The notes beneath the pieces are model-generated. The model searched no databases. It was given only the letters and a program-made list of their open reading frames with translations, and was not told the origin of the DNA. The position numbers and the translations under genes were made by a program. A DNA stretch of 57,799 bases from a virus. Its lineage: Duplodnaviria; Caudoviricetes. Location of the stretch: positions 1-57,799 of the IMG/VR virus record IMGVR_UViG_3300047560_001719; one strand, 5' to 3'. Of the stretch, positions 26,488 to 38,698 are shown piece after piece. Every line of letters begins with the position of its first letter. The first letter of the stretch is position 1.

Positions 26488-27996
26488 ATGGCAAATAAGT
26501 TTCAGTTAAAGCGCACGACCGTATCTGGTCGTACAGCGAACACCACCGATAGTGGTAATACATCCTTCATCGATAAAGGCGAACTCGCCGTCAACTTGGC
26601 CGACAGAAAAGTCTTCTCGTCGGACTCGTCGAATGTCATCTTCGAAGTCGGTTCCAACCTCTCATCTCTTTCAGTAGGATCTATCGTAGCCAACGGGTCG
26701 TTGGGTACTAGCGGCCAGGTACTTACTACCAATAGTAGCGGAGTATACTGGGCTACTGCGGGTGGTGGAGTAAACGCGGATCAAGTCACTTACACCTATA
26801 CGATCGCTGCTAACACCACTGTTATCACCGGTGCAGACGATGCCACTCGAACTCTGACTTATACCTCCGGACTCGAAAGCGTGTTCATCAATGGATCTCG
26901 TCAGATTTCAGGAGTTGATTATAACACTACCAACTCTGCTGCTATCACTCTTACTTCGAACGTAATAGCCGGAGAAGTCGTACAGGTCATTACATGGCAA
27001 GGTGCAGTCAACAGCGCTAACGTCGATGCTCAGTATACTTGGACTAACACTCATACTTTTAATAGTCTACTCACAGCGGCAAACAGCATATACCTCACCG
27101 GAGGAGGTGATGTTATTATTTCTTCGGCAGGAGTCGGAGGAGCTAACGCTAATACATCTTTCTATAACGATGCATCTGATCTTTATATTAACGTAAACAA
27201 TGCGATTCGTGCTTATATTGCAAGTAATGGCAACTTCGGTGTAGGCAATACTTCTCCTGCTCATAAGTTTAGAGTAGATGGGAATGTATCTTATTCTGGC
27301 ACTCTCTTTACGGCAGGCATTTCAGCGAACGGATCAGTAGGTTCTTCTGGACAGATTCTTACATCGAACGGGTCACAAGCCTACTGGCAAACACAACAGT
27401 TTCGCACTGCCGGCCAAACAGTTATTTCCGCTAACACGACTCTTGATTCGACTTATCTCGGCGAAAACATTCTTGTTGTTACAGCTGATATTACTATCAC
27501 ACTGCCATCCAGCGGTTTCGATTCAGGCACTTTGGCTTTTATCTCAAACGTCTCGGGTGGTAAAGTCAACCTATCATATGCATATGCTGGTGACGGTCCT
27601 ACTGTTCTTTATCCAAACGATAGCGTTATTCTCTGTACTGATGGTAACGGATCCTCTCTTTATTGGCGCCAGTATTCTTATACTAATACGTTACAGTTAG
27701 AACCAATAGTAGCGGTTTCTGCATTAGACGTAGACTGCTCTAAAGGAACATATTTTACTAAGACTATCGCTGCTAATAGCACGTTTACATTCTCAAACGT
27801 ACCGACGAGTGTTGCGTATAGTTTCACTCTTGAAGTAACTCATACAAGCGGTACTATTACCTGGCCTGCTGCAGTGAAATGGCCATCAGATACAGCTCCT
27901 ACTCTCACAACTGGCAAAACTCACCTGTTCATGTTTACTACTGCTAATGGTGGTACGCGTTGGAGAGGTTCAGCTCTCGTGGACTATGTAAACTAA
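26488..27996 (+). CDS. Tail fibre protein (502 aa)
   Basis: FQLKRT.V.GR.....GELAVN.AD.K.F N-terminus; ANGS.G.SGQ.LT.N....YW modules; GNFGVGNTSPAHK; C-terminal ITWP..VKWP..TAPTLT domain. Confidence 0.82.
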   Translation: MANKFQLKRTTVSGRTANTTDSGNTSFIDKGELAVNLADRKVFSSDSSNVIFEVGSNLSSLSVGSIVANGSLGTSGQVLTTNSSGVYWATAGGGVNADQVTYTYTIAANTTVITGADDATRTLTYTSGLESVFINGSRQISGVDYNTTNSAAITLTSNVIAGEVVQVITWQGAVNSANVDAQYTWTNTHTFNSLLTAANSIYLTGGGDVIISSAGVGGANANTSFYNDASDLYINVNNAIRAYIASNGNFGVGNTSPAHKFRVDGNVSYSGTLFTAGISANGSVGSSGQILTSNGSQAYWQTQQFRTAGQTVISANTTLDSTYLGENILVVTADITITLPSSGFDSGTLAFISNVSGGKVNLSYAYAGDGPTVLYPNDSVILCTDGNGSSLYWRQYSYTNTLQLEPIVAVSALDVDCSKGTYFTKTIAANSTFTFSNVPTSVAYSFTLEVTHTSGTITWPAAVKWPSDTAPTLTTGKTHLFMFTTANGGTRWRGSALVDYVN

Positions 27997-29083: not shown

Positions 29084-32000
29084 ATAATAAAAACAATTTT
29101 AGAGTCAAGAACGGGCTCACAGTAAGTAACGGGATCGTAGTAGAAGCCGGAGTTATTTCTGGTAACGGCTCTTCGATCACATCGGTCAACGCAGCTACTC
29201 TTAACGGTAACACCGCTGCTCAGCTTCGAGCTTATACTGACTCATCTATCGGTACATCCAACACTGCTATCGTAGCGAATGCTTCTGCGGCTTACACGAA
29301 CGCTGTAAGCTATACAGATACTAAAATTGGAACTGCCAACTCTGCCATCACTGGTAACGCTGCTACTGCTTATACGAACGCCACTTCGTTTGCATCGAAC
29401 GGTTCGAACATCTCGACAGGAACTGTAGCTTTCGCTCGCCTTCCTACTGTCGACTCGGTAGCTAATACATCAGTTGCATTAATCCCGACAGCCAACAACG
29501 TCAAGACTGCATACGATGCTGCTATCACAGCCAACAACAATGCTGCGTCTGCACTCACTGCGGCCGGTACAGCATACAGTAACGCTGTAACCTACACCGA
29601 CACCAAGATCGGTACGGCCAACTCTGCTATCGTAGCTAATGCATCGGCTGCTTATACTAACGCAGTTTCTTATACAGATGGCAAGATCCTAACTGCAAAC
29701 TCTGCTATTACAGGCAATGCTGCCACCGCCTACTCTAACGCGACTAGCTACACTGACACGAAGATCGGTACTGCAAACTCTGCGATGATCGCGAACGCCA
29801 GTGCAGCTTATACCAATGCTACAACCTATGCATCGAACGCTTCGAACATCTCGACAGGAACTCTTGCTTTCGCGAGACTTCCTACTGTAGACTCTGTAGC
29901 GAATACATCAGTAGCTTTGGTTCCTACTGCCAACAACGTCAAGACGGCATACGATGCAGCTATCACCGCAAATACCAATGCGCAGACAGCTTTGACTGCA
30001 GCGGGTGCAGCTTATACCAATGCAGTGAGCTACACAGATACGAAGATCGGTACTGCAAATACGGCCATGGCTGCTAACGCTGCAGCTGCTTATACAAATG
30101 CTGTCAGTTACACAGACGGTAAGATTCTAACTGCGAACTCTGCTATTACAGGCAACGCAGCTACGGCATATACCAATGCGACGACATACGCTTCGAATGC
30201 CAGCAATCTTTCTACCGGAACAGTAGCAGAAGCTCGGCTTCCATATCGTATGAACCAAAACGTTCGTACTACAGATTCTGTAGAATTTGCTGGTATCACT
30301 CTCACAGGAAACCTTGTTGTTTCAGGTAACGTGAACGTTGTCGGCGCAAATAACCTGATCGTGTCCGATAACATGATCTATCTGAACAGCAACAACGACG
30401 TCACGAACCCGGATATCGGTATCGCTGGTAACTACAACGACGGCGTGTATCACCACACGGGTATCTTCAGAGATGCCACTGACGGGTTCTGGAAAGTTTT
30501 TGATAACTATGATCCAGAACCAGACGCGAACGTGTACATCGATACTACTAACACGTCGTTCCATATCGCTGATTTCTGGGCAAATACAGCACGTATCGGT
30601 AACACATCAGTATACGCCACCATTAATACCACGACGTTTACTGGCACCGCGAACAACTCTACGTATCTTAATGGTCAACTAGCAGCTTACTATACGAATG
30701 CCACGAATATTAGTACAGGTACACTCGCAGCAGCTCGTTTACCTTCACTGTATCTCGGCACTACGACTATTCAGTCTACCAGCGCCGCGCAGGCTGTTAG
30801 CGGTATCACGACTCTTGCTGCAGGTAATACTACGATTACCGGTTTTGCAAACGTATCGGTGTCTGTTAACTCTGCTGCTCTTTCTGTCGGATCAAGCTTT
30901 GTAGCCAACACTACACAAGTAACTTATGGTATTCCACAGCTGATCAATAATAATCAGCATCTAAGATTCCAGACAGTCAACACTTCTGCATACGCATACT
31001 TTACACAGCAGAACGACGATAACTTTGTATTCTATACATCGAACACCACTTATGGCGCTCGTGCAGTATTCTCGATCTTTGCCAACAGCGTCACGAGTAC
31101 TTTTAACATCTCTCCAGGTGTTGTATTCAACGGCGGTATCTATGCTAACGGTTCGTACGGTACTTCTGGTCAAGTCCTAACAACGAATGGAACCGGAGTC
31201 TACTGGTCAACTGCATCAGCAGGTGTGAACGTCAACTCTACGTATGCTTGGACTAACACACACTCGTTTGCCGCCAACGTTACTTTTGCAAACAACATCT
31301 CTATCACTTCAGGAAACTCTTCTGTTGCTGGTGGGTTCTTGCTATTCAACGGTATAGCAGACGCTAACTGGAAGATCGGCAGAAATACCAACGGTACAAC
31401 CAAGTGGTACTACACAAACAACTCTCTTGATATCTTAGTAGCCAACTCGAACCTCGAAGGTATCGTTCTCGGTAACCCGCTCGTTAGCGGACAATCTTAC
31501 CTCGAAACTGGCCATGCCGGAACTTACATCGCAGGTAACGTAACTATCGGTAACACTTCGTCTAAATCTACCATCAACTCGACTGCGTTCTCAGGCTCTG
31601 CTAACAACTCTACATACTTTGACACAGCAACATGGGCAGCACCGAAAGCTATCGGTGGAGGCACTGCCAACTCGGGTGCTTTCACTACGGTAACTGCTAC
31701 GAGCGTTTCTGCTACTACAAACATCACCGCTACAGCAAACGTTTCGGGTGATATGGTTATCACAGCCAATAACGGTAACGGTACAAACTTCAAGGTCGGA
31801 GACGATGCTTGGATCGGAGACGTCAACCAGGCAGATACTCTTCGTATTCAAGGTCAACAGAGCGCAAACAACGCATACATCGTATTCGGCAATGCCGATA
31901 ACTCGATTAAGCTTGGCCGTGCAGGAACAGGAGCACTAACTTGGAACAGTAACTTTGCTGTTACAGGTAACGTTAACGTCAGCACTATTAATGCCACATC

Positions 32001-33918
32001 GTTCGGAGCTACGATCACGTCGAACGCTTCTGTAGCAGTCATGACGATCGGTAACTCTTCAGTGAGCTCAACCGTAAACAGCACGACGTTTACCGGCACC
32101 GCCAACAACGCTACGTATCTTAATGGTCAACTTGCTGCATACTATACCAATGCCACGAACATCACTACCGGTACTTTACCTTACGCTCAGATCCCAGCAA
32201 ACGTAATCAATACGACAGCGAACTTTACTATCTCTGGCCAGCATACCTATAATGTTGCAACGTGGGGAGTAATATTTAGAGCATCGAATACTACAAACTT
32301 CTCTGGAGCTAGATGGGAAGACACCGGTGGTACGGTTAGAGCAGGTTGGTATCGTTACGATAATTCTGATCTAACGCTGTCGACATACTATGCGAACGGT
32401 ACATATCAAGCTTCTCCTATTATTGTTTCATCAGCAACGGGAGCAGTTTCTCTTACATCGCTGTCAACGACAACCGGTACTTTCTCCGGCGCGGTTTCAG
32501 GTATTACTACTCTTGCAGCCGGTAACACTACTATTACTGGCTTTGCGAACGTATCTACTTCAGTCAACTCTGCACTGTTGACGGTTGGATCTAGCTTCAT
32601 TGCAAATACCACAGGTGCATATCATACAGGAACAGTCAACGCTGCATCTTATACAGTCGGAACAACGTTCGTTGCGAACAGTACATTCCTAACAGTAGGT
32701 ACAGCAACTCCATACAACAGCGGACTCGTTACATCATCTGCTCCCGATGGAAAACAAGCATATACTGCGCAAGTAGCCAACAATGTTTATTCACTATTCC
32801 AAGGATTCAACTCAAGCGGCGGTCTTGCTTTCCAAGTAACTGGTTCTGGATCTGTTACCGCAAACGGGTCATTGTCAGGAGTTACCACTCTTGCAGCTGG
32901 TAATACAACTATCACCGGATTCGCTAACGTTAGTGGTACCGGTGGAACGCAGCCTGCAATCGCTCTTAGAAGTGGTGTTTATGGAGCATTTGTTGTACCA
33001 CAAGCCAGTCCAGGCGCGTATAATAACTTAGTAGCTAATAATGACAATTTATTGTACTTCTCGAATGGCACTATAAACGGTGGAAATCTTGTCATTGGAT
33101 CATGGTCAGATCGTGCATCAGGCTATGGCATTAAATTTACCGGCAGTACATACGATTTAGCAGTTACTGCTAATACCCTCACTATTACTGGTAACACGAC
33201 TATTACCGGTTTCGCCAACGTAACTACTACTCTCCAGGTCGGAGGAGGCACTGCAGGTTCTCCAGCAATCACCGCTGCTACATCTACTGGCGGTGTTTCC
33301 CTGTCTCTTACAGATAGTGTTACGAGTACTCTTATCGTAAGGCATGATTCTGGATCAGGTCATCCTATTATTGGTACAAATGGTTCTGGTTTGAGACTTG
33401 CGGCTGGAGGTTCACAGTCAGGTCAAACTGCTATCACTATCATCAACAGTGGTAATACCGGTATCGGTAACACCTCTCCAGCACATAAGTTTTCAGTTAA
33501 CGGAACAACATACCTTGGAGGTATCACGACAGCTGCAGCTAACGTGGCGATGGCTAACAACTATATCGTTGCTCCTGCATTCCAAGCATACTCTGAATAC
33601 GTGTCGACGAATGCCACTGCAACTGGTGCTATCACTCTCGACCTGTCGACTTCGAACTTCTTCAACCTGACTCTGACAGGTAACATCACTCCGACGTTTA
33701 GCAACGCTCCTTCTGGTAGAATGTTCTCGTTCACGTTCGTTGCCAAGCAAGACGCGACAGGTGGTAGAACGATCACATGGCCGACAGGAACGAAATGGCC
33801 AGGCGGTGTTGCACCTCCTGCAACGACTACGGCAAACGCCATAGATATATGGTCAGTCATGACATACGACGGCGGTACTACATGGATCGCTTCACTCTCA
33901 GTTAAAAATGCGAGCTAA
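29065..33918 (+). CDS. Long tail fibre protein; reading frame open from 29065, true start codon unresolved
   Basis: Translated by hand, frame 1 is stop-free from 29065 (TRRIIINNKNNFRVKNGLTVSNG...) into the annotated ATG 29785 and carries the same repeats on both sides of that ATG. Contains YTD coiled-coil repeats, SGITTLAAGNTTITGFANVS repeats and a C-terminal ITWP...KWPGG.AP domain. Confidence 0.8.
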   Translation, partial: TRRIIINNKNNFRVKNGLTVSNGIVVEAGVISGNGSSITSVNAATLNGNTAAQLRAYTDSSIGTSNTAIVANASAAYTNAVSYTDTKIGTANSAITGNAATAYTNATSFASNGSNISTGTVAFARLPTVDSVANTSVALIPTANNVKTAYDAAITANNNAASALTAAGTAYSNAVTYTDTKIGTANSAIVANASAAYTNAVSYTDGKILTANSAITGNAATAYSNATSYTDTKIGTANSAMIANASAAYTNATTYASNASNISTGTLAFARLPTVDSVANTSVALVPTANNVKTAYDAAITANTNAQTALTAAGAAYTNAVSYTDTKIGTANTAMAANAAAAYTNAVSYTDGKILTANSAITGNAATAYTNATTYASNASNLSTGTVAEARLPYRMNQNVRTTDSVEFAGITLTGNLVVSGNVNVVGANNLIVSDNMIYLNSNNDVTNPDIGIAGNYNDGVYHHTGIFRDATDGFWKVFDNYDPEPDANVYIDTTNTSFHIADFWANTARIGNTSVYATINTTTFTGTANNSTYLNGQLAAYYTNATNISTGTLAAARLPSLYLGTTTIQSTSAAQAVSGITTLAAGNTTITGFANVSVSVNSAALSVGSSFVANTTQVTYGIPQLINNNQHLRFQTVNTSAYAYFTQQNDDNFVFYTSNTTYGARAVFSIFANSVTSTFNISPGVVFNGGIYANGSYGTSGQVLTTNGTGVYWSTASAGVNVNSTYAWTNTHSFAANVTFANNISITSGNSSVAGGFLLFNGIADANWKIGRNTNGTTKWYYTNNSLDILVANSNLEGIVLGNPLVSGQSYLETGHAGTYIAGNVTIGNTSSKSTINSTAFSGSANNSTYFDTATWAAPKAIGGGTANSGAFTTVTATSVSATTNITATANVSGDMVITANNGNGTNFKVGDDAWIGDVNQADTLRIQGQQSANNAYIVFGNADNSIKLGRAGTGALTWNSNFAVTGNVNVSTINATSFGATITSNASVAVMTIGNSSVSSTVNSTTFTGTANNATYLNGQLAAYYTNATNITTGTLPYAQIPANVINTTANFTISGQHTYNVATWGVIFRASNTTNFSGARWEDTGGTVRAGWYRYDNSDLTLSTYYANGTYQASPIIVSSATGAVSLTSLSTTTGTFSGAVSGITTLAAGNTTITGFANVSTSVNSALLTVGSSFIANTTGAYHTGTVNAASYTVGTTFVANSTFLTVGTATPYNSGLVTSSAPDGKQAYTAQVANNVYSLFQGFNSSGGLAFQVTGSGSVTANGSLSGVTTLAAGNTTITGFANVSGTGGTQPAIALRSGVYGAFVVPQASPGAYNNLVANNDNLLYFSNGTINGGNLVIGSWSDRASGYGIKFTGSTYDLAVTANTLTITGNTTITGFANVTTTLQVGGGTAGSPAITAATSTGGVSLSLTDSVTSTLIVRHDSGSGHPIIGTNGSGLRLAAGGSQSGQTAITIINSGNTGIGNTSPAHKFSVNGTTYLGGITTAAANVAMANNYIVAPAFQAYSEYVSTNATATGAITLDLSTSNFFNLTLTGNITPTFSNAPSGRMFSFTFVAKQDATGGRTITWPTGTKWPGGVAPPATTTANAIDIWSVMTYDGGTTWIASLSVKNAS
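29079..29086 (+). promoter_or_regulatory. T4-type late promoter TATAAATA
   Basis: Exact consensus overlapping the TAA at 29081-29083. Confidence 0.75.
29230..30240 (+). repeat. 26-aa Ala/Thr/Asn coiled-coil repeats (AYTNAVSYTDTKIGTANSAITGNAAT) within a larger 438-bp-spaced duplication
   Basis: Six full 26-aa units plus a partial one; the block starting AYTNAT(S/T)(F/Y)ASN..NISTGT.AFARLPTVDSVANTSVAL occurs at 29368 and 29806. Confidence 0.85.
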
Positions 33919-33921
33919 TCG

Positions 33922-35601
33922 ATGGGTATTGGTGGCGGTTCTAAATTTACATTAGAAAAAACATGGCGTGGATCTGGAACGGGAACTACTAAGTTCAACT
34001 CTCCGGGTAACATCGCTATTCCTTATGGTCGTAACAGCATCTACGTTTCAGGGCAGGGTGGTTCTGGGAACGCGCTCGTTCCAGGACCAGGAACTGGTAC
34101 TTACAACGTTATTCCTGGTAATGCGACCGGTACTTACAACATTATTCCAGGAAATGCTACTGGAACCTACAACATCGTTCCTGGTAACATCTCGACTTAC
34201 AATATCATTCCTGGTCCAGTGGCTACGTACAACATCATCTATCCAGTAGCTACATACAACATCATCTATCCAGGAACTGGTACATACAACATTATCTATC
34301 CAGGAACTGGAACCTATAATATCGTTCCAGGTAATGCTACTGGTGCTTATAACATTATTCCAGGAAATGCTACTGGCATCTACAACAAAATTGCCGGTAA
34401 TATAGCTACATACAACATCATCTATCCAGGAACCGGCACGTACAATATCGTTCCAGGTAATGCTACTGGAACCTACAATATCATTCCAGGCAATGCTACT
34501 GGTATCTACAACAAGATTCCCGGTAATATAGCTACATACAATATCATCTATCCAGGAACTGGTACATATAACATCGTTCCGGGTAATGTCGTTTCTTACA
34601 ACGTCACATATCCAGGAACCGGTACTTACAATAAGATCCCAGGTAACGTAGTAAGTTACAACATCGTTCCCGGTAATGTCTCTACGTATAACGTCATTCC
34701 GGGTAACGGTACTTACTACCCTCCGTATCCTGGATTTCAAAATTACTATTATTCTCCGAAGTACGGTGGTCCTGTACTAGACTTCTTTTATAATGCCCCA
34801 ACGCCCGGTTTTGTAGGTGCACCTTATAACGCTCCGACCGGTGGTCCTGCAAACTACAACGCTGCAACAAACGGGCCCGCGAACTACAACGCTGCAACAA
34901 ATGGTCCTCAGAACTACAACGTAGCGAACGGACCTGCAAACTACAACGCTGCAACAAATGGTCCTCAAAACTACAACGTAGCCAATGGTCCGGCTAACTA
35001 CAATGCGCCTACTAACGGCCCGACTAACTATAATGCTGCGACAAATGGTCCGCAGAACTACAATGCACCTACCAACGGTCCTCAAAACTACAACGTAGCC
35101 AATGGTCCGGCTAACTACAATGCACCTACCAATGGTCCGACTAACTACAATGCGCCTACTAACGGTCCTCAAAACTACAACCCTGCTACCAATGGTCCGC
35201 AGAACTATAACGTAGCGAACGGTCCTCAAAACTATAACGTAGCCAATGGTCCTGCAAACTATAATGTAGCGAACGGCCCTGCGAACTACAATGCTCCGAC
35301 GAACGGCCCTGCGAACTACAATCCAGCTACCAACGGTCCACAGAACTACAATCCAGCTACCAACGGTCCTCAGAACTATAACCCAGCAACAGCTGGTCCG
35401 CAGAACTATAATACTCCTACTCCAGCAGTTGCAGGTAACCCATCTTCTGCTCTTGGAATCACTTTCCCTGGGTCAAACGTCGGAGGTACACCTGCTCCTG
35501 TTATAAGTAATCAGCTGGCAAGCTACTACTCATACCCAGATGGTCAAACGCATTCGGTAACGGTAGCTCCCGGAGGTTATATCGACATTACCATTCAATA
35601 A
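33922..35601 (+). CDS. Pro/Asn/Tyr/Gly-rich two-arm repeat protein (559 aa), probable fibre-associated adhesin or spike
   Basis: 20 TYN(I/V)(I/V)(PGN/YP)-type repeats, an aromatic centre, then 20 NGP(Q/A/T)NYN-type repeats. The flanks (KFNSPGNIAIPYGRNSIYVSGQGGSG ... GGYIDITI) resemble the ends of the Gly-rich adhesin at 27996. Confidence 0.8.
   Translation: MGIGGGSKFTLEKTWRGSGTGTTKFNSPGNIAIPYGRNSIYVSGQGGSGNALVPGPGTGTYNVIPGNATGTYNIIPGNATGTYNIVPGNISTYNIIPGPVATYNIIYPVATYNIIYPGTGTYNIIYPGTGTYNIVPGNATGAYNIIPGNATGIYNKIAGNIATYNIIYPGTGTYNIVPGNATGTYNIIPGNATGIYNKIPGNIATYNIIYPGTGTYNIVPGNVVSYNVTYPGTGTYNKIPGNVVSYNIVPGNVSTYNVIPGNGTYYPPYPGFQNYYYSPKYGGPVLDFFYNAPTPGFVGAPYNAPTGGPANYNAATNGPANYNAATNGPQNYNVANGPANYNAATNGPQNYNVANGPANYNAPTNGPTNYNAATNGPQNYNAPTNGPQNYNVANGPANYNAPTNGPTNYNAPTNGPQNYNPATNGPQNYNVANGPQNYNVANGPANYNVANGPANYNAPTNGPANYNPATNGPQNYNPATNGPQNYNPATAGPQNYNTPTPAVAGNPSSALGITFPGSNVGGTPAPVISNQLASYYSYPDGQTHSVTVAPGGYIDITIQ
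34072..34692 (+). repeat. N-arm: 20 coding repeats of about 27-33 bp ending in Tyr-Asn
   Basis: Counted by splitting the translation at each YN. Confidence 0.92.
34831..35412 (+). repeat. C-arm: 20 coding repeats of 27-30 bp ending in Asn-Tyr-Asn
   Basis: Counted by splitting the translation at each YN; includes a 47-bp exact DNA repeat at 34960 and 35077. Confidence 0.92.
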
Positions 35602-35623: not shown

Positions 35624-36217
35624 ATGCCATATAATATTCCTAAGTACGGGAAACAACTGAATTGTTTTGCGGTGTGGTCCGGAGGATTTACTTCAGAAGA
35701 AGTCGATAAGATCATTGATCTCGAACGACTTCAAACATTTGAAAAAGGAAAAGTTGGTTTTGATAAGAATGCTGCTGCGCCCGCTGAGACACGAGACTCA
35801 GACGTATCCTGGATTCATCACGATCAACACAGCGACTGGCTTTTCAATCGTATGGCCGGTATCACGTCTATCGTCAACTACGATAACTTCATGTACAACA
35901 TCGATGGAGTCGATGCGTTTCAGTACACGAAGTATGGACCAAACCAGCACTATACTTGGCACTGGGATGTAGAGTTCGGCTGGCAAAAATGGGTTCGAAA
36001 GATCTCGGCTGTTCTGTTACTCTCTGATCCTGATGAGTATGAAGGTGGAGAACTTGAGATCGTTAACACTGGAAACCTCGAAGACAAAGTTTCCTTTAAA
36101 CCGAACAAAGGTGATATCGTATACTTCGCTTCGTGGATGCCGCATCGTGTTGCTCCGGTAACTTCTGGTCTTCGTAGAAGTCTTGTAGCATGGATAATGG
36201 GTGAAAGAGAATGTTGA
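35624..36217 (+). CDS. 2OG-Fe(II) oxygenase, prolyl-4-hydroxylase/PKHD-like
   Basis: HxD (WHWD), RKIS..LLLSDP.EYEGGEL, distal His in F.SW.PHRV.PVT.G.R.SLV.W. Confidence 0.9.
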   Translation: MPYNIPKYGKQLNCFAVWSGGFTSEEVDKIIDLERLQTFEKGKVGFDKNAAAPAETRDSDVSWIHHDQHSDWLFNRMAGITSIVNYDNFMYNIDGVDAFQYTKYGPNQHYTWHWDVEFGWQKWVRKISAVLLLSDPDEYEGGELEIVNTGNLEDKVSFKPNKGDIVYFASWMPHRVAPVTSGLRRSLVAWIMGEREC

Positions 36218-36948
36218 GTTGGAATCCTTTTAAGAAAAAGCCTATCATCGAGTTTTATTGTCATCGAGACGATGTAGCCACTCTTCCTCAGCCTCGACCG
36301 GCAGCAAAGTACATACCGGAATGGTACAAGAGAATTCCACCTGTGATCAATGATGGTAATAACGACCGCGATCAATACGGAGCTCGAACCTTTACAGCCA
36401 AGAAGTGCATGCCAATGTTGGATGCGATGTCTCTTGGATATGTTATTCCCTTGATATCAGATCTTTCAGTTAGGTCAAATCATGATTGTAGCACGATCGA
36501 AGTCACATCTTCTCCACATATCAACGTTTGCGAGTTCCATGACATTCGCCAACTCGGAGAGAGAACTGCTCCTGGATTCCCAGCTCCTCCTCTTAAATTC
36601 ATCAATCCGTGGATCGTGAAGACCGCTCCGGGTTGGTCGACGCTGTTTATGCCGCTTATTAACAATATGGAAAGCCACTTTACTTGTCTTTCTGGTCTGG
36701 TTGATACAGATACCTATCCAAAGGAAGTTAACTTCCCGGCTGTTTGGCACACACCAAACTTTGATGATTTGCTTCCAGCTGGTACTCCCCTTGTAGTAGC
36801 TATTCCGGTCAAGAGAGATGCAATTCCGACAAAACCGGTAGTACGTGACATGACAGATAAAGAATTTGATAAAGTCAATCTTATTACGAAGATGCAGAAC
36901 ACACGTAGAAAAGTTTATACTGATGAATTGAGAGCACCTAGAAAATGA
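36211..36948 (+). CDS. Conserved phage protein of unknown function (DUF6065-like), paralog 1
   Basis: PEWYK, T.KKC.P.LDAM..GY.IP, KF.NPW.VKT.PG.S.LF, G.VDTD.Y...VNFP, GTPL...IP.KR; family name recalled, not searched. Confidence 0.6.
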   Translation: MLSWNPFKKKPIIEFYCHRDDVATLPQPRPAAKYIPEWYKRIPPVINDGNNDRDQYGARTFTAKKCMPMLDAMSLGYVIPLISDLSVRSNHDCSTIEVTSSPHINVCEFHDIRQLGERTAPGFPAPPLKFINPWIVKTAPGWSTLFMPLINNMESHFTCLSGLVDTDTYPKEVNFPAVWHTPNFDDLLPAGTPLVVAIPVKRDAIPTKPVVRDMTDKEFDKVNLITKMQNTRRKVYTDELRAPRK

Positions 36949-37685
36949 AGAATCCATTTACATCATGGTTTAAACCGCAAAAAGATCTCGAATTTGTAGA
37001 TACTACTCGCCTTACGTATCATAACTTTACGGTCGAAAGAGCGTGCGATGTCAAAGCAAACACGTATCGCCATCAACTTGATACGTATGGAAAACATATG
37101 ATGCCGGGTTGTCCAGGAATCCTCGACTACTCTCAGTATGGGTATATTATTCCTGCATGGGTAGACATCCATATTTTTGCAAACAAAGCAGGAGTTTCCT
37201 GGCGCATAGGAGATGGTGCAGCTCGTGGAGATAGAGGGTTTGCAAACGGAAATCCTATGGATTATAGGTTGATAGACGGAGCCTTCGAAGTCGAAGATGT
37301 TCCTCCTACGGCTATTCTATTTCCATCTCCTTGGAAAATCTTTGCACATAAAAATATCAGTGCAATGGTAATGCCTGCAACGTATCATGGTTCTCATTTT
37401 GAAGATTTACATGTTATTCCAGGAATAGTTGACTACAACAAGTTTCATGCAGTCAATTTTATTTGTATGCCGCGACGATCTTGCGAAGTTCATATTAAAG
37501 CCGGAGAACCGCTTCTTCATGTCATGCCGTTTTTAAATAAGTCTATTACAGCGTCGGTCGGTCCAGGCACAGAAGAGCAGGTAGATAAAGCAAAGAACAT
37601 GATTCCGGGTGATGACGAGCAATACTATCGAAAGTTCATGAGAACAAAAAAGATTTTTAAGATAAACAAAGAGAGTGAGCAATGA
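36945..37685 (+). CDS. Conserved phage protein of unknown function, paralog 2 of the preceding gene
   Basis: CPGILDY..YGYIIPAW.D, F.SPW.I, PGIVDY..F..VNF and IKAGEPL..V.P align by eye with 36211-36948; ATGA coupling. Confidence 0.6.
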   Translation: MKNPFTSWFKPQKDLEFVDTTRLTYHNFTVERACDVKANTYRHQLDTYGKHMMPGCPGILDYSQYGYIIPAWVDIHIFANKAGVSWRIGDGAARGDRGFANGNPMDYRLIDGAFEVEDVPPTAILFPSPWKIFAHKNISAMVMPATYHGSHFEDLHVIPGIVDYNKFHAVNFICMPRRSCEVHIKAGEPLLHVMPFLNKSITASVGPGTEEQVDKAKNMIPGDDEQYYRKFMRTKKIFKINKESEQ

Positions 37686-38698
37686 ATATTTTTGTTTCGA
37701 TCTGTTCTTACCAAGATCCATTACTGCCACATACTATCAAGAGTATGATGCAGACCAAATCTAATAGAAACAACGTCGTGTACTCGATCTTCGAACAGAC
37801 TCGTTATGAGGATTCTCTTGCATGCACAGAACCTGTATTAGTAGGTCGTGAAGACGTTATCTACAAAAGAATTGATCCTGAGTATTCGGACGGATGTGTG
37901 TGGGCAAGATACGTCAACATGTTGAACGTTACTGACGAGTTCGATTTCATCTATCAGATCGATTCGCATATTCTGCACGATCAGCATTGGGATCGCGCGC
38001 TGATCGAAGATTATAAGAGAGCGTTGGATATATCTGGAACAAACAAGATCATCATCACGGGATCGTGTAAAGGTTTCAACATCTCTGAAGAAGATGACGA
38101 GATAAAGACTTATTTGATTGAACAAGAAGATCTATCTTGTAAAGTAGGGTACTACACAATCGATCCTGAAACTCTCATTCCAGTAGTGCACGGAGATTCT
38201 TTTCCTGCAACCGAAATGCCTCAGCCGGCATTTCATATCATGGCAGGCAACTTCTTTACTCACAAAGATTGGGTAGATAATGTCGGCTTAAATCCAAAAA
38301 TCTTCTTCGAAGGCGAAGAAGTAATGATGGCAATGATGTCGTATGCAGCTGGCTATAAGATGTTCCATCACAGTAAGATGGTTTCTTATCACCTAGCTGA
38401 TACAAAGACTTGGCATACAAAGAACAATGTAGTCGAACCAGCAGGTGCACGCCGTAGGCAAAGACTTTCTGAGATCGGTCGACTTGAATGGAGGAAATAC
38501 TTAGATACATGTCGTGAAGATATGCTAGAAGCTTTCCATCAAGAGTTCGGAATCGATTTTATTAATCTTGAAATCGCAGAGAGTGCCCGAACATACAGCT
38601 TAGACACTCCAGGTAAAGCAAATCATTTTACTGAATTCAAGAAGGTTCCAGAAGAAAACCAACTTCCTCCTGCTCTGTTTATGAAAGACGATGAATGA
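37682..38698 (+). CDS. Glycosyltransferase resembling Skp1-hydroxyproline GlcNAc-transferase (GT60 / Pfam GlcNAc)
   Basis: IFVSI.SY.D..L..TI, G..WAR, QIDSH.....WD..LI (DSH metal motif), AGNFF and FFEGEE match the GT60 pattern. Confidence 0.8.
   Translation: MNIFVSICSYQDPLLPHTIKSMMQTKSNRNNVVYSIFEQTRYEDSLACTEPVLVGREDVIYKRIDPEYSDGCVWARYVNMLNVTDEFDFIYQIDSHILHDQHWDRALIEDYKRALDISGTNKIIITGSCKGFNISEEDDEIKTYLIEQEDLSCKVGYYTIDPETLIPVVHGDSFPATEMPQPAFHIMAGNFFTHKDWVDNVGLNPKIFFEGEEVMMAMMSYAAGYKMFHHSKMVSYHLADTKTWHTKNNVVEPAGARRRQRLSEIGRLEWRKYLDTCREDMLEAFHQEFGIDFINLEIAESARTYSLDTPGKANHFTEFKKVPEENQLPPALFMKDDE

Follow-up and report, generated by a model that had tools for sequence, protein, structure and literature searches.

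We analyzed the gene for a tandem-repeat protein of 559 amino acids (aa) in the Caudoviricetes record IMGVR_UViG_3300047560_001719, of which positions 1-57,799 are hereafter called the window. Two arrays of short units with different sequences, the N arm and the C arm, lie in this protein on either side of a tip and are enclosed by the two halves of a base domain. Sequence comparison strongly supports a mirror code as a real and general rule of the protein family: the types of the C-arm units, counted from the base, can be predicted from those of the N-arm units, and a pair of four-unit repeats, one per arm, is one instance of this rule. The layout of the open reading frame (ORF) is as follows.

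33922-35601, plus strand: ORF of the repeat protein, 559 aa, from the ORF list; splitting at YN gives 42 units
33922-34101, plus strand: base domain, N-terminal half (aa 1-60), with the degenerate unit N0, ALVPGPGTGT (34072-34101)
34102-34686, plus strand: N arm, units 1-19, of 9-11 aa (types YNIIPGNATGT, YNIVPGNIST, and YNIIYPGTGT)
34687-34824, plus strand: tip or turn, consisting of unit 20, an irregular tail (YYPPYPGFQNYYYSPKYGGPVLDFF), and the irregular unit 21
34825-35406, plus strand: C arm, units 22-41 (YNAPTNGPQN, 10 aa; YNVANGPAN, 9 aa)
35407-35601, plus strand: C-terminal half of the base domain, conserved family-wide
34285-34596, plus strand: higher-order repeat of the N arm, covering units 7-16 in about 2.4 copies with a period of 126 bp (4 units)
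34942-35232, plus strand: higher-order repeat of the C arm, covering units 26-35 in about 2.6 copies with a period of 117 bp (4 units)
34315-34566, plus strand: two full N block copies (34315-34440 and 34441-34566), 88.1% identity
34942-35175, plus strand: two full C block copies (34942-35058 and 35059-35175), 84.6% identity
34960-35123, plus strand: 47-nt exact repeat (copies 34960-35006 and 35077-35123), the longest exact repeat of the C arm

There are 20 YN units in the N arm and approximately 21 in the C arm; unit 20 passes into the irregular aromatic tip, and unit 42 starts the C-terminal domain. In the numbering of the first-pass annotation, which is shifted by one because the degenerate unit before the first YN was counted too, our units 8-11 are N9-12, and our unit 21 is C1.

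Correspondence of units between the arms

The N units were classed by their tails and the C units by the residue x in the motif GPxN, and every mirror and parallel register was tried. In the window, one mirror register is perfect, matching at 19 of 19 rungs with a mutual information of 1.378 bits (0.67 for the next best register). A second feature is equally perfect one unit further along, with the N units of the YP type always standing opposite the 9-aa VANGP units. Not one of 100,000 shuffles of the C units reached the observed score of 38/38, and the score of 30/30 left after removal of one block copy from each arm was likewise never matched.

The same rules were then scored in 17 distinct orthologs sharing these unit types, the window included; an eighteenth, VFQSj, results from joining two ends of one contig. 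The register was anchored at the base, so that N unit 1 stood opposite the final C unit. The body rule, which pairs N units of the YP or FP type with the 9-aa VANGP units, holds at all 357 rungs of the 17 orthologs (12-27 rungs each), and the key-residue rule, by which Ile, Val, Leu, or Phe in the N unit stands opposite Ala and any other residue opposite Gln, holds at 342 of 350. With the joined sequence added, the counts are 380/381 and 365/374, respectively. At eight other offsets, tried with the first 11 orthologs, agreement falls to 58-75% (body rule) and 56-73% (key-residue rule). The most frequent key pairs (N residue first) are G-Q (159), A-Q (83), V-A (61), I-A (45), and Q-Q (10), and Ser occurs on either side.

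Shuffling within individual orthologs gave the observed score in none of 20,000 trials for 12 of the 18 sequences, in 72 and 96 trials for two more, and in 3031 for another; the remaining three are uninformative, as their arms are monotone. The unit counts of the two arms are strongly correlated (r = 0.94, n = 17). In a coupling map of positions, the strongest signal (0.89 bits) links the N key residue to the C residue x, compared to at most 0.28 bits in neighbouring registers, and it is followed by N positions 5-7 against positions 3-5 of the adjacent C unit (0.57-0.72 bits). Coupled positions run in antiparallel order within a rung as well. The aromatic residue that follows the N key residue also depends on it, being Tyr in 93 of 96 cases after a bulky residue and Phe in 193 of 244 after a small one.

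The code appears to be predictive in one case. Loci L047 and L046 are the two ends of a single metagenome contig of 163,552 bp, which share an overlap of 55 nt located in the N arm of an ortholog. In the joined sequence the Vq pairs of the C arm exceed the BC pairs of the N arm by one, and the only V-Q pair and the only body mismatch are both located next to the join. From the extra Vq pair, the code predicts that the sequence lacks two N units (60 nt) there, and so it flags a probable two-unit gap at the contig join.

Duplicated blocks and length variation in the family

The first-pass annotation had described a four-unit block duplicated in each arm, with spacings of 126 bp and 117 bp and a mirror-matched placement, and its strings and coordinates, including a 20-mer at 34396 and 34522 and the 47-nt exact repeat at 34960 and 35077, are correct. 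In the N arm, units 8-11 and 12-15 differ at 15 of 126 nt (88.1% identity); 13 of these 15 differences fall in third codon positions, and two of 42 residues are changed. The C-arm counterpart, units 26-29 versus 30-33, has 18 differences in 117 nt (84.6%), 16 of them in third codon positions, with changes in two of 39 residues. Tandem Repeats Finder reports a period of 126 bp in the N arm (2.4 copies, 34281-34588, 87% matches) and of 117 bp in the C arm (2.6 copies, 34927-35225); the multi-unit periods that it finds in the arms are 60/57 and 126/117 bp. The limits of the repeated regions, units 7-16 and 26-35, were set by sliding identity, and the register of unit i against unit 42-i was found independently of them. 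By this register the repeated N units 7-16 face C units 35-26, and these coincide exactly with the repeat of the C arm.

When whole four-unit blocks are compared, an offset of four units is the best in both arms, with an identity of 0.881 in the N arm (next 0.778) and 0.846/0.838 in the C arm (next 0.803). The longest exact repeats of the N arm are one of 31 nt at offset 156 and others of 26 nt at offsets 126, 213, and 282. In the C arm, the probability of a 47-nt identical run by chance is about 0.002-0.006 for offset 117, and this run is the sole sign of a recent event.

The repeated order of unit types is solid in both arms. We dropped the attempt to date the two duplications by the similarity of the block copies, since a control based on codon identity showed that block partners are about as alike as any units of the same type. 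Codons for the same residue are identical in 28/40 cases (70%) between N block partners and in 59/89 (66%) between other N units of the same type (Fisher test, p = 0.84); the corresponding values for the C arm are 22/36 (61%) and 244/444 (55%), with p = 0.49. The identity among units of the same type, 0.66 (N) and 0.55 (C), is above the expectation from codon usage (0.44 and 0.47, respectively). As block partners are barely more alike than this at synonymous sites, the duplications either are old or have been obscured by homogenisation. Neither their order nor their timing is readable from the window sequence, and the divergence of 12-15% gives a misleading impression of youth.

The AABC-AABC order of units is common to the window and its relative VFQS, the base domains of which differ by about 25% in DNA. 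In both arms, the similarity between block copies is higher inside each genome (0.83-0.88) than across these two genomes (0.73-0.81). Probably, the blocks predate the split of the window and VFQS lineages and have been homogenised since; less parsimoniously, AABC-AABC blocks would have arisen twice.

Members of the family share an N-terminal segment with the pattern LEKTW…FN.PGN…G and a C-terminal segment with the pattern LG[VI]…PG…YPD…GG, and the arms and tip between them are very variable in size. The N-terminal motif was found in 57 of the 177 proteins fetched, of 59-659 aa, some of which are fragments. Scans of contigs identified 32 viral and 37 metagenome loci, with intact orthologs in 29 and about 20 of them, respectively. 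The N-terminal half of the base domain (aa 1-60) is 83-91% identical among orthologs, and K[YF]G-type turn motifs are present in their tips.

The rung strings of the orthologs differ in the number of (BC)n units facing (Vq)n, where n = 1-4, and in runs of A or B. In addition, a basal module of six rungs in L005 is missing from both arms of L040. In diverged relatives, every fixed length difference is matched in both arms. Changes of rung class are two-sided in 21 of 26 cases, which were counted in eight overlapping ortholog pairs and are therefore not independent events; the one-sided changes involve Ser or Glu at the key position. By the flanking oxygenase and DUF6065 proteins, ten orthologs fall into one shallow clade with end branches of 0.005-0.04, and since this clade spans 12-27 rungs, matched length change is frequent and fast.

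A second subfamily, built from other unit types, has length differences of the same kind: L059 lacks, relative to L029, 90 nt (three units) of the N arm and 108 nt (three units) of the C arm. Six of the seven members of this subfamily have as many N units with a final LN as there are units in the basal C run, which consists of 12-aa xSTGx units and a terminal unit. In more distant members (L028, L061, L062, and P0029), the two arms are built from identical or similar unit types. In L028, short units of 7-8 aa lie, as judged by eye, equally far from the tip in both arms; in P0029, a long stretch of the N arm recurs in the C arm in the same order, not in mirror order.

Origin of the matched arm lengths

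The first-pass annotation had proposed either strong selection on sequential recombination or slippage events or a coupled mechanism that would tune the length of a putative needle, which might serve to reach through a capsule or S-layer. The former is supported by the code in 17 orthologs, by the matched fixed lengths, and by the one-arm variants and the decoupled genealogies of the two arms described below; a coupled mutational mechanism is not supported. We consider the most likely explanation, with good though not full confidence, to be slippage or unequal recombination occurring independently in each arm and filtered by selection for folded-back, antiparallel pairing.

According to this explanation, the N- and C-terminal ends of the protein would build the conserved base, and its middle would form the N arm, the tip, and the C arm. 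The two different repeat arrays would be antiparallel and in contact at every rung, with N unit i against C unit n+1-i. Two kinds of complementarity may define a rung. In length, an N unit that is one residue shorter (YP or FP in place of PGN) would face a C unit that is also one residue shorter (VANGP in place of APTNGP); in side chains, a bulky Ile, Val, or Leu of the N unit would be placed opposite Ala in GPxN, and a small Gly or Ala opposite Gln. Each array would mutate separately by slippage, unequal recombination, and gene conversion among similar units. Variants with unmatched arms would arise without persisting, and a change would be fixed only once the other arm gained or lost the cognate units; the 126-bp and 117-bp blocks of the window may be one such matched pair. 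Because the code imposes one unit order on both arms, higher-order repeats of equal unit number are expected in both, and hence the commonest slip in one arm would have the size that the other arm compensates most easily. We infer three components of this scheme, namely that the arms touch (be it in a single chain or across chains of an oligomer), that selection is the filter, and the argument from the shared period. As the structural models are confident only for the base domain, it is covariation that points to physical contact.

An even more specific proposal, to which we give slightly less than even chances, is that the arms form a protein zipper. It would have a discrete code, with unit length and a knob-or-hole residue at each rung, analogous to an RNA stem, and would let a receptor-reaching fibre change its length in steps of whole rungs on a short time scale. 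One-arm slips would then be the raw material and compensating slips the fix, and the equal unit count of the higher-order repeats would bias the second slip toward the compensating size.

Four results favour independent events in each arm, two of them being the matched fixed differences of diverged relatives and the lack of inverted DNA symmetry between the arms. Variants changed in one arm, the existence of which the first-pass annotation had suggested checking, do occur, and solely between otherwise identical contigs. Three such pairs were found: L045 equals L021 minus 90 nt (three units) of the C arm, with no mismatches and a junction homology of 47 nt; L042 equals L011 minus 30 nt (one unit) of the N arm, with one mismatch; and L057 equals L050 minus 150 nt (five units) of the N arm, with no mismatches in 1380 nt and a junction homology of 11 nt, which is too short to make k-mer collapse a likely cause of the deletion. 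Thus one-arm differences are confined to near-identical sequences and matched ones occur in diverged sequences, as expected if selection removes unmatched forms. The genealogy of unit copies, the fourth result, is uncorrelated between the arms: the similarity of N (BC) copies to each other does not follow that of their (Vq) partners (r = -0.004, 59 pairs). For instance, two N copies in L002 are 98% alike and their C partners 75%, and in L001 two C copies are 96% alike and their N partners 65%.

Several observations weigh against this explanation. All one-arm variants come from short-read assemblies and all are deletions; those in L045 and L042 could be products of repeat collapse, given the 47-nt junction homology of the former and the run of identical units in the latter, and the L057 junction had no matches in viral contigs, this locus being a singleton. 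The monotone arms of L043 (22/20 units) and L045 (17/14) differ by up to three units, so matching is not absolute where the code carries no information. The divergence of the two block pairs in the window is similar (15/126 in the N arm versus 18/117 in the C arm, p = 0.46), which would fit a single event too. Finally, in AlphaFold2 models the arms were of low confidence. The predicted local distance difference test (pLDDT) score in the window protein is 57-72 for the N arm, with one short strand per N unit, and 29-43 for the C arm, and it is below 50 for the arms of the 187-aa homolog P0078.

A single coupled event, in which one recombination or repair tract across the tip altered both arms, would also produce matched changes. 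It could proceed by repair of a break whose two ends invaded a sister copy with a shift of four units. Alternatively, a longer allele could have donated, through a double crossover, a distal module consisting of the distal N arm, the tip, and the distal C arm. The exactly mirrored limits of the repeated regions (units 7-16 and 35-26) and the similar block divergence agree with such an event, and exchange of modules is conceivable in view of L005 and L040, which share tips and distal rungs and differ at the base. However, selection alone would also leave mirrored limits, the copy genealogies are uncorrelated with cases of strong homogenisation in one arm, and deletions in one arm exist. Moreover, inverted DNA symmetry that could guide the event was not found: the arms share only ten inverted matches of 12-22 nt, and on these grounds we rejected a DNA-level palindrome linking them. 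We therefore regard a coupled event as unlikely. Somewhat less probable still is the possibility that no block was ever duplicated and that AABC/AABC and its C-arm counterpart were reached unit by unit under selection for a periodic surface pattern. The synonymous sites of block partners, no more alike than those of other units of the same type, would fit this, as would the longest exact repeat of the N arm, which lies at offset 156 rather than 126. It is opposed by offset 4 being the best block-level match in both arms, by the improbability of the 47-nt run at offset 117, and by the relative VFQS, where the same order combined with closer similarity of copies within a genome indicates duplication followed by concerted evolution.

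The possibility that the repeats are mis-assembled, or that the arrays are structurally independent and mirror each other by chance, has to be weighed for a repeat-rich gene from a metagenome assembly, the more so as one related contig breaks inside the N arm. As to assembly, tiling of the gene by Logan contigs of run X1 revealed no differences, although this is not independent support because X1 is probably the source sample. The depth of the 47-mer in X1 is 44.8 compared to 17-20 in the flanks, that is, two copies, and the repeated 31-mer likewise has double depth; in addition, the block copies differ at 12-15% of sites and hence are resolvable. As to coincidence, the code holds in 17 orthologs from many samples. 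We consider this possibility very remote and refuted for practical purposes. These checks used Logan contigs rather than reads, and rare length variants are invisible in them; runs X4 and X6 contain relatives at 90-95%, the joints of which are not interpretable from their short contigs.

If the arms pair as the covariation says, phages whose neighbouring genes are a few percent apart offer a natural series of 12-27 rungs, and the compensatory evolution of a protein repeat number becomes readable from sequence, which is normally the case only for RNA stems. The origin, tolerance, and compensation of one-arm slips could then be tested, as could the roles of monotone, low-information stretches as permissive sites of growth and of host surface structures that fibre length may track. 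The zipper, if true, would be a self-registering protein module of tunable length, and a literature search for compensated repeat numbers in fibres found no precedent for it. Its code could guide the construction of rigid protein rods of set length.

Structural analogues and genomic setting

The AlphaFold2 model of the window protein, built from an alignment of 60 rows, has a mean pLDDT of 56.7, and its confident parts are residues 21-50 (91-97) and 501-559 (93-97). For P0078 the mean is 72.5 and the predicted template modelling (pTM) score is 0.56, with both termini above 90. The ESM Atlas model of the window protein is poor (pTM 0.37), and its structural neighbours are unrelated. A profile of 49 family members had no matches among PDB chains at E values up to 1. 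A blastn search with 4 kb against the phage collection gave no match, and tblastn searches with the N-terminal 60 aa and the C-terminal 65 aa found no homolog in 50,697 phage records. With the whole protein, tblastn yielded only C-arm matches of low identity to pentapeptide-repeat proteins, those of Caulobacter phages being 26% identical. In Pfam, the repeat protein has only sub-threshold matches of low complexity, and in PHROGs one weak match (E = 6e-4) to a family of unknown function. Thus in the collections searched the repeat family is represented by no Pfam model, solved relative, or cultured phage. Assignment to the pentapeptide-repeat proteins was rejected, as the units are of 9, 10, or 11 aa and the window protein has no Pfam pentapeptide match; P0099 scores 20.4 bits, below the cut-off of 26.4. 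The Extensin-like family (PF02095) was also rejected (26.4 bits versus a cut-off of 105).

By topology, the closest solved analogue appears to be the needle of T4 gp37. According to PMC6957217, the base domain of this needle (D10/D11) is assembled from two separated segments, 811-881 and 1010-1026, and the insertion between them contains an ascending (882-931) and a descending (960-1009) stem segment plus a tip. The window protein similarly has conserved terminal segments enclosing an ascending arm, a tip, and a descending arm, and its gene lies in a T4-like fibre module; the antiparallel pairing of arms is also alike, being indicated here by covariation (357/357 and 342/350 rungs). In contrast to gp37, residues 61-495 contain no His and hence no HxH iron motif, the arms are about 200 residues each compared to 50 in gp37, and they consist of 9-11-aa tandem units of two different families. 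In addition, the window protein is a separate product of 559 aa rather than the end of a fibre protein, and it has no sequence similarity to gp37.

In the coiled-coil arms of SMC and Rad50 proteins, indels need matching in both helices. There, as proposed here, N- and C-terminal stretches of one chain fold back antiparallel from a terminal domain to a distal tip, and PMC5344682 describes the length of the arms as functionally important. Those arms are built of alpha-helical heptads and have a conserved length, whereas the phage arms have non-helical repeats, a two-feature rung code, and 12-27 rungs.

Satellite arrays evolve by unequal crossing-over and gene conversion, and RNA stems by compensatory change. 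As in higher-order tandem arrays, the phage arms have multi-unit periods, copy numbers varying among relatives, and homogenisation within the array, with units of one genome being closer than orthologous units. As in RNA stems, a change in one arm is compensated in the other in most class changes (21 of 26), but this complementarity acts at the protein level, without base pairing. Unlike in either system, the two arrays kept in step here differ in sequence and lie within a single gene, about 600 bp from each other.

The adhesins of the gp38 type (T2/S16-like) have a glycine-rich hypervariable middle between conserved parts. The repeat gene resembles theirs in lying directly downstream of a large fibre gene, and its product in having a glycine- and proline-rich hypervariable middle between conserved parts. 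To our knowledge, a repeat architecture and a mirror code are not features of gp38, and no solved chain matches the window protein in sequence.

The window is a virus record of 57.8 kb with a CheckV completeness of 34% and carries a T4-like structural module, including PHROGs matches to tail sheath (E = 1e-115), portal (6e-207), and major head protein (4e-163). The major head protein shares about 60% identity with its counterparts in Stenotrophomonas phage DLP6, Pelagibacter phage Mosig, the Methylophilales phages Melnitz, and cyanomyoviruses. All runs holding the window sequence are labelled as freshwater metagenomes. The repeat ORF begins four bases after the gene for a tail fibre protein of 1377 aa, and a 2-oxoglutarate-Fe(II) (2OG-Fe(II)) oxygenase gene is located directly downstream.

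The fibre proteins encoded at 29785-33918 and 26488-27996 end in a shared C-terminal segment of about 90-100 aa, for which the PHROGs match is phrog_9017, tail fiber protein (E = 1.6e-15 and 3e-13, respectively). The corresponding end of the larger protein (29785-33918) has an identity of 54-74% in all 13 related loci tested, and this shared C-terminus is a candidate attachment site for the repeat protein.

The downstream cluster at 35624-38698 encodes the 2OG-Fe(II) oxygenase (PF13640, E = 8e-19), a DUF6065 protein, an ORF without a family, and a protein of the family Glycosyltransferase (GlcNAc) (PF11397, E = 3.7e-24). Of 13 related loci tested, 12 have this cluster after the repeat gene. 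The N-arm units contain X-Pro-Gly, the motif of collagen prolyl-4-hydroxylase, and we take PF11397 to be the family of the Skp1 hydroxyproline GlcNAc-transferase. The pathway is described in PMC3515798. The repeat protein may thus be hydroxylated and glycosylated.

Finally, long open frames on the opposite strand cover the repeat arms at 34048-34740 (minus strand, 230 aa) and 34777-35229 (minus strand, 150 aa); most simply, they are a by-product of the repetitive codon content.

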